Below are positions 1-4,808 of a stretch of 64,000 nt of DNA, one piece after another (positions within the stretch are counted from its first letter, which is position 1; each line of letters begins with the position of its first letter). A program made the position numbers and the translations under genes. Source of the stretch: a virus (Duplodnaviria; Caudoviricetes); the IMG/VR virus record IMGVR_UViG_3300042307_000844. The stretch is one strand, 5' to 3'. A model generated the notes under the pieces. That model did not search any database, was not told the origin of the DNA, and saw only the letters and a program-made list of their open reading frames with translations.

Positions 1-756
1 ATGAAGGGGAGGGGGATAAGCACCAATGAAAATAAACTGATACTTGTGGCGATTATCAATGATGAATTTCAGAACATGGGAGAAATCATCCTGTTGTCCC
101 GTGACATTCTTCACATCAAAGTGCGCTCCCGATCCTGAATAAAGGATGCGTGGTTTCTTTTTATTTCTATCAAAATTCTGGATGACCTTACCATAATTAT
201 AGTGATGTCCAATCCACCATTCGGGGGGGAAATTGGGGACTACTGAAGTCTTCTGTTGTCCCGTCTTCTCGATGAAAAGATCACGCATGTATTTACATGT
301 CACTGTCACCTCATCCGCCATGTTCATCATGTCCACACAGTTCTGACGAATCTCATCGGAAGCAAATGCATGTTTATATGAATTATAATCAGGAATCTCT
401 TCGTGGAATACCACATCATCCACCTCATAGACAATCTTAAATCCGCATTCGGGTTGGATGCTCTTGAGGAATTTGAAGAACTCCTTCTGTTGAGTGGAAC
501 ACTGACGTTGCAGCTTGATGGTTTTTACATCCTGATACCAATCCTTGTTGAGAACCATTTTGGTGATTGTGGTGGAGTCTCCCAATCCGCACATATTGAT
601 GTGATTCTCACTCCATCCTATACGATATTGACCACAACCTCCCCTGTCGGCGGCAAAGTTTAGATAAGTATTACCCCTTTTAGGGGGTTCTTGAGTGGGG
701 GTTTTTACCGAATAGGGATTCTTAGGAAAAGGACTGCTGAATGGCTGAACAAACAT
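1..756 (-). CDS. Glycosyltransferase-like protein (GT-B/GT4-like), truncated by the window start; missing from the ORF track
   Basis: Manual translation from ATG at 756: MFVQPFSSPFPKNP...GGCGQYRIGW...KIVYEVDDVVF...ADEVTVTCKYMRD...VVPNFPPEWW...KPRILYSGSGAH. The frame is open to position 1. GCGxYR, YEVDD and V-T-V-T motifs are typical of phage GT-B proteins. Confidence 0.65.
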   Translation of the reverse strand, partial: MFVQPFSSPFPKNPYSVKTPTQEPPKRGNTYLNFAADRGGCGQYRIGWSENHINMCGLGDSTTITKMVLNKDWYQDVKTIKLQRQCSTQQKEFFKFLKSIQPECGFKIVYEVDDVVFHEEIPDYNSYKHAFASDEIRQNCVDMMNMADEVTVTCKYMRDLFIEKTGQQKTSVVPNFPPEWWIGHHYNYGKVIQNFDRNKKKPRILYSGSGAHFDVKNVTGQQDDFSHVLKFIIDNRHKYQFIFIGAYPPPLH

Positions 757-785
757 GTAGAGATTTATCCATATTTATACATTTG

Positions 786-1658
786 TCAATTGTTTATTCT
801 TCTAGTAATCCCACCTTCTTTTTCAAGTTCAATAATTGATCCCGTGACTTGTTTCAATATTTCCTTTCTATGGGAAATTGCATAAACAGCCAAATCGTTC
901 TTTTCAATTCTTTTTTTGACGAGTTCTACCAATAAATCAAACCCCCTCTCATCAAACGCCGCGTCAAAAACCTCATCTATCCATTCCACGTTAGATGACA
1001 CTCCTGAAATCTTCCTTTTCAAATCCTTGAATGCCCATGCACACGCGAGATCGACAGTTCTGCGTTCTCCACCGCTCAGATTCCAGTAAGAAATTTCCTT
1101 GCCCTTGTCATTGGAAAGCTGTTCATCAAAGTATTCATCGAATTTACAACGAATGGACATACCAAGATCATTAATATATTGCTGGATACTTGCGTTCATC
1201 ATGGAAAGGAGTCTCTTCACCACAAAGCTACGGACACCTTCTTCTCCCAGAACGAATTTACACACCTCATAATCTTCCGATTTCTGCTTGAGCAATAGGA
1301 AATTATCACGTTCCGTGTCATATCTCTCCTGCGTCTTGATGATATTCTCCTCAAAAGCTGGTTTGGGTAATTCATCCAACTTCAAATTATCCAGAGATTC
1401 CTTGTATTGTTTGAGACTAATTTCCAGACCTTCCAATTTCTGCTTGGTGACTTTAGCTTCGTTGATTTGGTCTTGAAATTCAGCTACCTTTTGTTGAACC
1501 TTTTCTTTTTTGGAATGAAATTGGGATTTATCTTCCTTCAATTTATCAATTTCCTCAACAATATTATCCAATTCGGATTGATATTGCTCCTTCATTTTCT
1601 CCAGATGTTCCACATGTGTATGGGGAATTTCTTGAAGGCACTTGTCACATTTAATCAT
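786..1658 (-). CDS. gp46: gp46 (Rad50/SbcC-like ATPase), C-terminal half: zinc hook, coiled coil, ABC signature, Walker B
   Basis: CDKC hook, NLSGGERRTVDLA signature, WIDEVFDAAFD Walker B/D-loop, YAISHR H-loop. Confidence 0.92.
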   Translation of the reverse strand: MIKCDKCLQEIPHTHVEHLEKMKEQYQSELDNIVEEIDKLKEDKSQFHSKKEKVQQKVAEFQDQINEAKVTKQKLEGLEISLKQYKESLDNLKLDELPKPAFEENIIKTQERYDTERDNFLLLKQKSEDYEVCKFVLGEEGVRSFVVKRLLSMMNASIQQYINDLGMSIRCKFDEYFDEQLSNDKGKEISYWNLSGGERRTVDLACAWAFKDLKRKISGVSSNVEWIDEVFDAAFDERGFDLLVELVKKRIEKNDLAVYAISHRKEILKQVTGSIIELEKEGGITRRINN

Positions 1659-1959
1659 TTTTCAAAATTTCGTTTAAATCTTTTCTCTCCGTTTTGCATA
1701 TAGCAAAAACACGATCAATCATTCTATTAGCGTTAGGTAACAATTTATAGGTTTTAAATTTATTCAACAAATCATATAATTTAGACATTCTAATATAATC
1801 ACCATCAGATTTTTCATTATCTAAAACATTTAGAAAATCTTCAATAGATGTCAACTTACCCCAATCCAATGAATAAGGAATTTGTGTAAAATGAGATTGA
1901 TGGTTTATCCAGTGTTCAACCCTACTTTTTTCAATAACGAATATTGGTTGTTTTTTCAT
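1651..1959 (-). CDS. Hypothetical 102-aa protein inserted between the two halves of gp46
   Basis: ORF overlaps the stop of the N-half (ATGA) and the start of the C-half; no recognisable motif. Confidence 0.7.
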   Translation of the reverse strand: MKKQPIFVIEKSRVEHWINHQSHFTQIPYSLDWGKLTSIEDFLNVLDNEKSDGDYIRMSKLYDLLNKFKTYKLLPNANRMIDRVFAICKTERKDLNEILKND

Positions 1960-2873
1960 ATCACTTTCTCAATTTGTTCAATTTCTTTCACCTTCAGCTT
2001 CCTCAAAGTCTCCTTGGAAGAGATTTCGTTATTCACATGACCGATCTTTCCATCCAGCTTTCTCCAAGCATCATCCCACTTCTCTTTCTCCGTTTGGATG
2101 GTAGAAATATCCATAATAGATGTTTTAGCAATCTTTTCAGATGTTTCATCAATCTTTTCCTGAATTTCTTTGCGCTTTTGATCAAGAATCGCTTCCCGCT
2201 CTTGGACTTTCTTCAAATAATCTTCTTGCTGCTTGTTTAGGGTTTCCAATGTGTTATTGATTTCTTCCAACTTGGCAGAAGAAATGTTCATCTCCCCTTT
2301 ATTATCACGAATCAAAGTCTTCAATTCGTTGCTCATCTTACCAAAGACTTCCAGAGAGAAAATGTCATTGATGAACTTGCGCTTCTCTTCAGGTTTCTTT
2401 GCCATGAATGGGATGTTATCCGAAAGAGATAAAATATCACAACTACGACAAATCACAGGATTGGAACCGATCAAATCACAGATGAATTTGTCGGTGTTGG
2501 CAATGGAATCCTTGGTGATGTCTTCCTCGCATCTCAGAAGCGTCACAGTGCTTGGTTTGACTTGCCGCTTTATCGTGTATGTCTGAACGTCTTGCTCCGT
2601 CTCTACGTCGAACGTAAGCTCAATGGCACCCTTTCCTTTGGTGATGTTGTTGATGATGAAATCCTTTTTAATTTCACGGATGGTTTTACCGAATAATGCG
2701 AAATAGAAAAGTTCGGCCATAACTGATTTTCCAATACCGTTCACACGATCTGGATTATCAATATTCCTACCAGTGATCAGATTAAATCCTGATTGGAAGT
2801 CAACCGATATTTGGTCATTTCCCACACTGAGGAAATTTTGACCTTTTAAATTTTTATAAATTATTCGTCTCAT
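1956..2873 (-). CDS. gp46: gp46 (Rad50/SbcC-like ATPase), N-terminal half: Walker A and coiled coil
   Basis: KGQNFLSVGN, LITGRN...NGIGKS Walker A, YFALFGK, ERKFINDIFSLEVF-like segment followed by a coiled coil. Confidence 0.92.
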   Translation of the reverse strand: MRRIIYKNLKGQNFLSVGNDQISVDFQSGFNLITGRNIDNPDRVNGIGKSVMAELFYFALFGKTIREIKKDFIINNITKGKGAIELTFDVETEQDVQTYTIKRQVKPSTVTLLRCEEDITKDSIANTDKFICDLIGSNPVICRSCDILSLSDNIPFMAKKPEEKRKFINDIFSLEVFGKMSNELKTLIRDNKGEMNISSAKLEEINNTLETLNKQQEDYLKKVQEREAILDQKRKEIQEKIDETSEKIAKTSIMDISTIQTEKEKWDDAWRKLDGKIGHVNNEISSKETLRKLKVKEIEQIEKVI

Positions 2874-2882
2874 ATTATTTTA

Positions 2883-3083
2883 TCATCCGCATTGTTTCAT
2901 TTTTTGGATAACTTCTTTATCAATCTCTTCTTGAATAATATCACGAAATATTTGCATTTCAATTGAATTGAACGCTTCATCATATTCTTCCTGTGTGTAA
3001 TCCTTATACCACCTACCAGTGTGGTCTTCATACACCCGAATATAACCATCCTTTACGGGAAATTCCTCATCTACACTTTTCAT
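2883..3083 (-). CDS. Hypothetical protein between gp47 and gp46
   Basis: Operonic ORF at a position where T4-like phages often carry a small gene. Confidence 0.6.
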   Translation of the reverse strand: MKSVDEEFPVKDGYIRVYEDHTGRWYKDYTQEEYDEAFNSIEMQIFRDIIQEEIDKEVIQKMKQCG

Positions 3084-4086
3084 ACAATTCGTCGTTGATT
3101 TTTTTAACTCTTACCAATTTATCTGGTTCTAAATTCAATTGTTCATAGAACTCGTCAAACATTCCCACAATATCAATGGAATCCACCTGTTCAACATCCC
3201 CGATTGTCTTGGTTGCCACGTTGTATTCCGTTGTGAGGCGGAATGGAGCAAAGTTGGACAGGTAAATCTTTAACTTCTCCACCTTATCATCATCCATCTC
3301 CTTGTCAATGATCAGCTTTACGATGTTTCCTTCCACATCCTCCGCTTTGTAGTCCTTAATCTTGGACAGGGGAATTTTGATAAATTCTGGAGACACCGTA
3401 TTCTTCACGAATTCCACCGAATCATCTTCCAGATTCAGAATGTGATAGCCCTTATCATCTCCGCAATCGTTGAAATCGTGGGGAAAGGTATTGCCAATAT
3501 AGCGGATTGTTCCCTCATTGTATTTCTTGATACTCTTAGTATGGAAATGACCAGACCAAACGTTGGTTGTTCGGGATGCTAGGAAATCCATAACTTGGAA
3601 TCCATGATCACAAACCTTGTAATTGTTCATCTGAAATGATTGAATTTCAAAGTGTCCAAAGATGTGATCAAATTTACCTTCCGGCAATTCATGGTTCCAT
3701 GGAACGAATAGCAATTTCTTACCAAACGCATCAAATTCCAAATTCTGGTCAATGATGGTGATGTTATCATGACCCTTGAGGAATCCCAAGCTATGGACAT
3801 CGGAACGGTTCTTGTAGAACGCATCGTGGTTGCCAATCACCATAAAGAGGTTGAAATTCTTGAATTTGGCGATCAATTCGGATGCAACGTGAATTGTCTG
3901 AACGGAAATCTCCGAACGGTTGTGGAAGAAATCACCAAGGAAAAAGATGTCTGAAATCTTCTTTTTCTTTAAATCAGCGACGATCCAATCAGCCCATTTT
4001 AAGGCTATCTCATGCCACTCCGTCGAATTTCCATATAGACCCAAATGAAGGTCTGAAAATAATGCTACTTTATTTTTCTTTATCAT
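3067..4086 (-). CDS. gp47: gp47 recombination endonuclease (Mre11/SbcD-like metallophosphoesterase)
   Basis: SDLHLG, LGDFFHNR, IGNHD, FGHFE, SGHFH, YIGN motifs; likely start MIKKNK at 4086. Confidence 0.93.
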   Translation of the reverse strand: MIKKNKVALFSDLHLGLYGNSTEWHEIALKWADWIVADLKKKKISDIFFLGDFFHNRSEISVQTIHVASELIAKFKNFNLFMVIGNHDAFYKNRSDVHSLGFLKGHDNITIIDQNLEFDAFGKKLLFVPWNHELPEGKFDHIFGHFEIQSFQMNNYKVCDHGFQVMDFLASRTTNVWSGHFHTKSIKKYNEGTIRYIGNTFPHDFNDCGDDKGYHILNLEDDSVEFVKNTVSPEFIKIPLSKIKDYKAEDVEGNIVKLIIDKEMDDDKVEKLKIYLSNFAPFRLTTEYNVATKTIGDVEQVDSIDIVGMFDEFYEQLNLEPDKLVRVKKINDELYEKCR

Positions 4087-4357
4087 ATTCTTTTGCTGTT
4101 TCATTAAGCACATCTCCAATATTTCGGAAAAAACTTTCAATGTGGTAGTTATCTCTCCACATCATATCTCGTCCAAAAGACGGTGTATATTGATCAATAA
4201 TTTTAGCAGATTTCTGCTGAACCCTGTCGAGATAATCCTTTCTCACTTCGTTCAATAATTCATCCTTGTCGTATTCTGATCGAATCAATCCTTCCACTTT
4301 TTCAATCAACAATCTCTGATCAAGAGATGCTTGCGATTTAATTTGTTGTAAGTTCAT
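4070..4357 (-). CDS. Hypothetical protein between gp55 and gp47
   Basis: Operonic ORF; the start could be 4378 or 4357. Confidence 0.6.
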   Translation of the reverse strand: MNLQQIKSQASLDQRLLIEKVEGLIRSEYDKDELLNEVRKDYLDRVQQKSAKIIDQYTPSFGRDMMWRDNYHIESFFRNIGDVLNETAKEYDKEK

Positions 4358-4358
4358 G

Positions 4359-4808
4359 CTATTCGTCATCATACTCATCTCCCTCCAAATTCGGTTTCAC
4401 ATATACATGTCCCATGGAATCCGGCCCACTCATGCTTTCCATATACACCATCTCCTTGTAATCCTCCAGACCCTTGTGTTGACCGTTTTCCTTCTTGATG
4501 CGGTTACAGAAAGCGTTCCAAGCAATGCGGTTGAAATAGGAAAATGGGTTGTATTCCGATTCGATGTTATAGAGCTTCTTTTCCAAAGCTGCATACATTT
4601 TCAACACCGCATCCCCGACCATTTCCTGTTTCCAAGACTTGGAATAACGGATGAAATTGATCTTGTATGACAATCCCTCCGCAATATTCATCAAATGGAC
4701 ACCCAATTCATCCAAATTCTCCCCCGTTTCATAATACTCAACCAATTGCTGTTTGAAGAGCTTGGAATTGACATAATGGGGTTTCTTAGCGTTTTTGTTT
4801 TCCGTCAT
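4359..4808 (-). CDS. gp55: gp55 late-transcription sigma factor
   Basis: HYVNSKLFKQQL, IAEGLSYKINFIRYS, EMVGDA, NPFSYFNRIAWNAFCNRIKKE are hallmark gp55 segments; synteny uvsW-55-47-46. Confidence 0.92.
   Translation of the reverse strand: MTENKNAKKPHYVNSKLFKQQLVEYYETGENLDELGVHLMNIAEGLSYKINFIRYSKSWKQEMVGDAVLKMYAALEKKLYNIESEYNPFSYFNRIAWNAFCNRIKKENGQHKGLEDYKEMVYMESMSGPDSMGHVYVKPNLEGDEYDDE

Follow-up and report, generated by a model that had tools for sequence, protein, structure and literature searches.

A gp46 gene split at its zinc hook in lake phages: a probable two-chain Rad50/SbcC-type ATPase with an exchangeable passenger slot

The arm of Rad50 has been described as one chain that folds back at a zinc hook (PMC12343972). 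What becomes of such an enzyme when its chain is cut at the fold? This question is raised by a stretch of 64,000 nucleotides (nt), hereafter the window, from a virus of the Duplodnaviria (Caudoviricetes; IMG/VR record IMGVR_UViG_3300042307_000844). Here gp46, the phage counterpart of Rad50 and SbcC, is not a single chain folding back at its hook; it is encoded by two open reading frames (ORFs), with a stop codon and a further ORF of 102 amino acids (aa) between them. Comparison with related sequences makes it highly probable that the phage builds a Rad50/SbcC-type gp46 ATPase from two polypeptides and that the gap between their genes serves as an exchangeable passenger slot. The gp46 of the window thus appears to be a Rad50/SbcC homologue with a different chain topology.

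The split locus and its unsplit relatives

All parts of the locus lie on the minus strand. The N-terminal half of gp46 (N-half; 1956..2873, 305 aa) carries the Walker A motif, ATPase lobe I, and the ascending coiled coil. It matches PF13476 AAA_23 (E 7e-13) and profile positions 293-562 of the SbcC-like PHROG 77 (E 4e-41); its Walker A motif, VNGIGKS, is encoded at about 2724..2744, and its terminus reads EIEQIEKVI-stop, with the final codons GAG AAA GTG ATA TGA. The C-terminal half (C-half; 786..1658, 290 aa) matches positions 629-951 of the same profile (E 7e-41) and has the zinc hook at its N-terminus, followed by the descending coiled coil. Its first codons, ATG ATT AAA TGT GAC, open the sequence MIKCDKC (reading MIKCDKCLQEIPHTH...), in which residues 4-7, CDKC, form the CxxC zinc-hook motif (1638..1649). 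Further along are the LSGGE signature (1065..1079), the Walker B DE (972..977), and the H-loop His (870..872). Between the halves lies the 102-aa ORF (1651..1959), a conserved small phage protein without a match to any Pfam or PHROG family. Its start overlaps the N-half stop in ATGA (1956..1959), and its stop overlaps the C-half start in ATGATTAA (1651..1658); because of these stop/start overlaps, translation of the three ORFs is probably coupled. The original prediction had described these three ORFs, the codons at their ends, and the unrelated insert overlapping both neighbors, all of which we found as described. It had also placed the two halves in one frame, which holds for the window (2873-1658 = 1215 = 405 x 3) and is incidental, as other split alleles are offset by 1 or 2. 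A second gp46 was looked for in the 177.6-kb genome, and none was found.

The window derives from a metagenome assembly, in which a chimeric contig or a false stop could mimic a split gene. Against such an artefact, an 801-nt stretch over both junctions is identical and complete in 24 lake-water metagenome runs from 2018 to 2024. Support across the junctions, which the original prediction had proposed to check, was found in contigs from four of these runs, which cover both junctions with no differences. One of these contigs spans 700..3000 without a difference, and others bridge both junctions, at depths of about 9 to 108. The same split architecture, diverged in sequence, is also present on IMG/VR, ENA, and Logan contigs from other samples, leaving an assembly or sequencing artefact with a vanishingly small probability. 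One run, X15, additionally yielded a minor contig (depth 6.8, versus about 92) that matches window 1978-2018 and then continues on the coding strand as TAAATTTTCCTCTGTTGAAGATGGTATTCA, which is the junction of an unsplit allele. With a dominant split contig and a minor unsplit one, X15 therefore holds both alleles in one lake sample.

Relatives of this gp46 come mainly from uncultured phages. The nearest cultured phages reach about 29% identity to gp46, and among cultured relatives neither a megablast match for the locus nor any match for the 102-aa cargo was found. IMG/VR and metagenome contigs, cited here by their L numbers, supplied many gp46 relatives at 81-91% identity. Some of them encode gp46 as one ORF of 596 aa (L004, L008, L009, L011/12, L036, L042, and others; unsplit alleles at 81-88% identity), with a junction that reads EIDKFSSVEDGIQCDKC, or in fuller context ...KEIDKFSSVEDGIQCDKCLQ...; others carry a split gp46 with a common tail and head (L001-3, L005, L006/7, L027-29, L043, L046, L074, L076, L078, and L094). 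In the split alleles, the N-half ends in EI(E/D)QI(E/N)(K/N)(V/A)I-stop or in ...EKVTK-stop, and the C-half starts with MIKCDKC, MSVIKC, MSVKC, MKVKC, or MNIHC. A search with the C-half revealed C-halves of 288-294 aa that begin 3-5 residues before CxxC in at least 40 protein clusters (90% identity). More distant relatives (28-70% identity) are all unsplit; the unsplit gene is therefore regarded as ancestral, and the split as derived.

Alignment to related gp46 genes, suggested as a check on the original prediction, thus supplied the unsplit alleles and their junction. That prediction had envisaged the precise insertion of a 306-nt cassette, whose removal would restore a normal hook entry. Removing 1654-1959 does produce an in-frame ORF of 595 aa, but not the sequence of the unsplit relatives, whose junction is EIDKFSSVEDGIQCDKC rather than EKVIKCDKC. 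Split and unsplit alleles have similar DNA as far as window 1978, and the similarity resumes at about 1655; window 1656..1977 (about 322 nt) thus stands for about 25 nt of the unsplit allele. Within this segment, a split-specific tail (1959..1977, codons for EQIEKVI) takes the place of KFSSVED in the unsplit alleles. DNA was thus inserted at the hook, as had been proposed, although not as a precise cassette: about 322 nt replace about 25 nt, the junction is rebuilt, and the split is old. The TGAT micro-homology once read as an insertion scar does not hold up, not being conserved in carriers of the same cassette (GTAAT in L001, GTTAT in L002/L003). The N-half tail also has seven nucleotides, AAGTGAT, in common with the end of gp47 in L023, a match that was set aside as too short to be meaningful.

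How old is the split, and how do the two forms relate? The C-halves of L074 and L076 are 57-60% identical to that of the window, yet these alleles have the same split and tail, and compared with the window their synonymous sites are saturated even beside the junction. Because divergent, synonymously saturated alleles keep the split, the split state must be old. Nucleotide identity of L074/L076 with the window peaks at the junction. Recent horizontal spread of a junction module into divergent backgrounds was considered as the reason and rejected in view of the synonymous saturation at this place, which leaves either ancient sharing or constraint. At closer range, the gp46 of the window and that of the unsplit L004 share 92-99% nucleotide identity in parts, with differences mainly within about 15 codons of the junction. 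This mosaic identity indicates that split and unsplit alleles recombine as alternatives at one locus, and alleles of both kinds that are 85-90% identical co-circulate in the same lakes. As judged from these comparisons, lake phage populations carry the split as an old, derived allele, circulating alongside unsplit alleles and recombining with them. Its single origin is inferred from the one characteristic rebuilt junction, with its tail motif, that all split alleles have. A 44%-identical relative has a gp46 broken elsewhere (L066:309-2096), where about 105 nt separate a 111-aa piece with Walker A from a 448-aa ORF. The break could represent another type of split, but also a frameshift or an error of sequencing.

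Function of the two halves

A stop codon in a gene that is one ORF in T4, in cyanophages, and in many close relatives may also signal decay, in which case the halves would be an unused pseudogene in a phage that lacks gp46 or relies on host functions. The original prediction had allowed for degraded halves; the substitution pattern, however, is that of maintained genes. Among split alleles, pairwise ratios of nonsynonymous to synonymous substitution rates (dN/dS) are 0.05-0.12 in both halves (0.06-0.10 for the N-half, with one near-identical N-half pair at 0.19) over saturating synonymous divergence (dS mostly 0.7-1.2); unsplit gp46 pairs give 0.05-0.22. The Walker A residues N45, G46, G48, and K49 of the N-half are invariant, as are LSGGE, D228-E229, and H263 of the C-half. 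Hook cysteines C4 and C7 are invariant in every relative, split or unsplit, while the two inner residues of the CxxC motif vary. Further stops or frameshifts occur in none of the split alleles examined, and the split form is found in the protein clusters counted above and on many long contigs. A decaying pseudogene is thus highly improbable.

Selection at the apex itself also differs between the two forms. The proportion of nonsynonymous differences (pN) near the junction is 0.14-0.16 in split alleles (L074/L076), compared with 0.43-0.50 in equally divergent unsplit genes. The apex-proximal coil seems more constrained in the cut chain, as expected if it holds two chains together. In close relatives (to about 57% C-half identity), the hook region has the form C-x2-C-x5-H-x-H (CDKCLQEIPHTHVEH; window 1614..1649, minus strand). 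Its histidines, which are invariant in 11 split C-halves, kept in close unsplit alleles, and variable in distant relatives (IPETH, VSEDH), might be extra zinc ligands.

A two-half complex prediction had also been suggested, and the two chains were co-folded in three runs, using family alignments. The interaction score of the complex (ipSAE, interaction prediction score from aligned errors) was 0.79, against 0.00 for the best control; 58 of 80 solved complexes attained that mark, as did 2 of 110 mismatched pairs, counts that apply here only approximately because our own alignments were used. At least 93% of contacts agree among the three runs, with a partner pLDDT (predicted local distance difference test) of at least 79. 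Contacts with heptad-like spacing join N-half residues 171-305 to C-half residues 19-150, and head contacts join N 1-56 to C 217-287. The modelled shape is a Rad50-like head with an antiparallel coiled-coil arm, in which hook residues C 1-18 are left free. Such a model shows likeness to Rad50, not binding, and its pass may be a memory of solved single-chain Rad50 structures.

Taken together, the shared split, the purifying selection, the invariant motifs, the lack of a second gp46, and the model lend support to the functional heterodimeric gp46 with a passenger gene that the original prediction had put forward. In such an enzyme, the N-half would bring Walker A, lobe I of the ATPase head, and the ascending arm helix. 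The C-half, beginning three residues before CxxC, would bring the hook, the descending helix, the signature, Walker B, the D-loop, and the H-loop. The halves would reassemble non-covalently through an antiparallel coiled coil of roughly 130 residues and the two head lobes, two C-halves would share a zinc ion through their CxxC motifs, and the complex would act with gp47 as in T4. The 102-aa ORF is one of at least nine occupants or states of the gap and, on this reading, a passenger rather than the cause of the split.

Several points weigh against this two-chain reading. For this phage and its clade, the support consists of comparative sequence and a predicted model. As the C-half opens with a free end just three residues ahead of C4, its zinc hook might dimerise less firmly than that of a one-chain Rad50. 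Translational re-initiation usually lowers the amount of the downstream product, which would make equal amounts of the two halves harder to reach. Finally, the inferred single origin rests on a shared tail motif, and heavy mosaicism prevents a clean tree.

The gap, its occupants, and the surrounding module

Nine gap states were seen among the split alleles, with gap lengths from 42 to about 570 nt. The 102-aa ORF fills the gap in the window, L001-3, and L078; in L027-29 it is joined by an 87-aa ORF that starts MIKCD, a 14-nt duplicate of the C-half start. Elsewhere the gap holds a 108-aa ORF (L006/7), a 70-aa ORF fused in frame to the C-half (L005), a 156-aa GNAT acetyltransferase (L043) whose end, LMIKKL, is again a copy of ATGATTAAA, or an ORF of 89 aa (L074), 69 aa (L076), or 78 aa (L094). 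In L046 it is nearly empty, consisting of a 42-nt spacer only. The duplicated C-half start, ATGATTAAA(TGTGA), found at cargo ends in L027 and L043, argues for cargo exchange by recombination at short boundary homologies. The gap thus presents itself as a slot in which small genes are swapped at gene boundaries and whose cargo appears to have been exchanged many times. The L046 spacer (L046:4456-4500) contains a sigma-70-like TTGACA-N17-TAATTT and a mini-ORF of 13 codons. The opening of this mini-ORF, ATGATTCAAT, is similar to the unsplit GGTATTCAATG, perhaps as a footprint of cargo loss.

Family scans of every cargo except the 78-aa one of L094 found no recognisable homing endonuclease in the gap states; the 102-, 108-, 87-, and 69-aa ORFs and the fused 70-aa ORF match no family, nuclease families included. 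The 89-aa cargo has weak, sub-threshold matches to families of unknown function, and fold searches with the 102-aa cargo turned up no nuclease fold.

The variety of the gap also bears on whether a full-length gp46 might be restored during expression, by a group I intron, gene-60-style bypassing, stop readthrough, or protein trans-splicing. T4 gene 60 uses ribosomal bypassing, and in the window the halves share a frame, with an Ile codon before the stop and another after the restart ATG. Among split alleles, however, the frame offset between halves is 0, 1, or 2, which is evidence against bypassing, splicing, and readthrough; the gap is of no fixed length and encodes a conserved protein under purifying selection. 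Each route meets further obstacles. The take-off codon ATA and the landing codon ATT do not match and are read by different tRNAs. A scan of 600..3200 with Rfam at E up to 1 found no family, introns included, and the 42-nt spacer of L046 cannot be an intron. Readthrough would run into another stop 16 codons past the TGA. As for an intein, stop codons bound the insert, and the halves sum to 595 aa (305 + 290), versus 596 aa in the unsplit protein, thus leaving no room for intein segments. Restoration of a full-length chain is extremely improbable; bypassing, which the original prediction had rated the less likely alternative, is effectively excluded by the codon mismatch, the gap length, the frame offset, and the conserved gap protein.

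What, then, is the cargo of the window? The 102-aa family comprises 10 close clusters, in which 32 columns are invariant, and at 50% identity it has 34 representatives; its dN/dS is 0.08-0.36. A confident AlphaFold2 (AF2) model (pLDDT 82) shows a helical bundle with a small sheet. A profile search of 1.84 billion proteins returned only 34 small relatives and no informative fusions, Foldseek comparison of the model with the PDB, AFDB clusters, and BFVD gave nothing at E <= 0.001, and the ESM Atlas gave no usable match for the protein. In a wide VIA-align search, the best matches to the model (Z up to 5.9) were generic helical bundles. In relatives, members of the family precede gp47 (L021, L024-26), separate it from an unsplit gp46 (L020, L023), or sit within the split gene, and at each position the 3' end of the ORF fits an overlap with the start of the next gene. 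Distant members are located in small-ORF arrays, with no gp46/47 in the flanks examined; a functional link between the cargo and gp46/47 was accordingly rejected as a general one, being confined to close relatives. By these comparisons, the 102-aa ORF is a real conserved gene, a passenger moved within the module, and not evidently the agent of the split.

The persistence of this family in the gp47-gp46 module, at three positions in close relatives, could nevertheless be taken to mean that both halves are made without forming a canonical Rad50, for example that one half acts alone or with the cargo in a new role. The lower junction pN of split alleles also fits such a reading, as it shows that constraints have changed. 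However, ABC ATPases are built such that a half with Walker A and a half with Walker B and the signature hydrolyse ATP only in combination, and both halves keep exactly the motifs of a joint head. Moreover, the cargo differs between alleles and can be absent, as in L046, and therefore no particular cargo is needed; the distant family members in their small-ORF arrays likewise speak against a partnership. New roles for the halves are accordingly improbable.

If gp46 is indeed a two-chain enzyme, was the split hook a neutral accident? The nine gap states, the duplicated boundaries, and the tighter junction constraint in split alleles hint that it was not. The split could be a selected or self-propagating module, or the hook could be a dedicated cassette-exchange site with a repeated ATGATTAAATGTGA boundary; we regard either version as possible but unlikely. 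As an example of the former, the split allele could resist a nuclease or host defence whose target is the hook-coding sequence in its unsplit form or gp46 as an intact single chain; as for the latter, the site could provide an always-expressed slot for accessory genes. If either version is true, an open, non-covalent apex would be compatible with Rad50 function and perhaps useful to it, which would matter for models of the arms as a closed ring or rod. An in-genome nuclease guide or site directed against the unsplit junction was looked for and rejected, as only chance matches of 16 nt or less were seen; the best match to the unsplit junction in the genome is a 14-mer at 86485, inside a coding region reading EDGI.

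The gene order of the surrounding module is uvsW-like helicase, gp55, gp47, gp46. The partner of gp46, the Mre11/SbcD-type nuclease gp47, is encoded on the minus strand at 3067..4086 (Pfam Metallophos, E 2e-06; PHROG 100, SbcD-like, E 9e-68). Its likely start is the ATG at 4086 (MIKKNKVALF..., 339 aa), as all relatives have 339 aa and begin MIKK...; the longest ORF begins at a TTG at 4140 (357 aa; window 4086..4140, minus strand). The ATG at 4086 overlaps the end of an upstream 102-aa ORF (4070..4378), which is unrelated to the cargo family. The gap between gp47 and gp46 is a second variable slot, holding in the window a 66-aa ORF (2883..3083, minus strand), in L001/L002 one of 149 aa, in L006/L007 one of 78 aa, and in L020/L023 a member of the 102-aa family. 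A scan of 600..4400 found promoter and terminator sites to be no commoner than in shuffled sequence.

Mobile or variable ORFs are abundant in the helicase-gp55-gp47-gp46 module overall. In L020, an ORF of the GIY-YIG + NUMOD3 homing-endonuclease type lies between the UvsW-like helicase and gp55 (L020:1449-2186). In several relatives (L005:6017-7030, L050, L060, L074:4402-5550, and L058), gp46 is directly followed by a 337-382-aa ORF with matches to DUF7487 and several helix-turn-helix (HTH) families, which is possibly a homing-endonuclease-like gene. In L005, the C-terminal tail of this ORF repeats the gp46 C-terminus (…EKENGITRRVN). A tie between the DUF7487/HTH ORF and the split was rejected, as the ORF accompanies gp46 of either form and the window lacks it.

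Comparison with known systems

In most respects the locus resembles T4 gp46/gp47 and bacterial SbcCD, with which it shares the ATPase motifs, a coiled-coil arm with a CxxC hook, and an adjacent gene for an Mre11-type nuclease; the module of uvsW-like helicase, gp55, gp47, and gp46 is also that of T4. The difference is in the chain. In T4, cyanophage P-RSM1, Bacillus phage Thurquoise, and all distant relatives examined, gp46 is one chain of 560-630 aa, whereas in the window it is two chains, cut, unlike T4 gp46 or SbcC, three residues before CxxC. A literature search found no paper on a split of gp46, Rad50, or SbcC at the hook. Hopfner and colleagues reportedly co-expressed N- and C-terminal segments of Rad50, forming an archaeal catalytic domain, which assembled an active head without a covalent link. 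Those laboratory constructs were missing most of the arm and the hook; the cut in the window, by contrast, is natural and located at the apex, with full-length arms. Here the chain is cut at the very fold of Rad50, yet the enzyme is under strong selection, suggesting that an unbroken backbone across the apex is dispensable. The split and unsplit alleles that co-circulate at 85-90% identity thus constitute a natural comparison of Rad50 with and without a continuous apex. Annotation pipelines will label the halves as truncated SbcC fragments, although they probably form a working enzyme.

Closer parallels to the split itself are found among T4-type genes in pieces, such as nrdA of Aeh1 with mobE and the T4 topoisomerase genes 39/60 with mobA (PMC2988022). 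Gene 43 is likewise split, as 43A/43B, in Aeromonas phages 44RR and 25 (PMC2988022). As in those cases, a normally single essential gene has become two co-oriented ORFs through inserted DNA, the pieces have been retained, and stop/start overlaps point to coupled translation. Gene 43 offers a further parallel, as there too the content of the gap varies from one relative to another, and the occupant need not be the cause. Unlike in the mobE/nrdA type, the window-type gap states scanned include no recognisable homing endonuclease; one cargo is a GNAT protein, and one gap is a 42-nt spacer. The locus also differs from T4 gene 60 with its bypassing, in that ATA faces ATT, the coding gap is variable in length, and the frame relation is not fixed. 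With this locus, gp46 joins the short list of T4-type genes in pieces, and it illustrates how a split site can become a hot spot for swapping small accessory genes inside an essential, co-translated operon. It stands apart from the other members of that list in that split and unsplit forms coexist in one closely related, recombining population.

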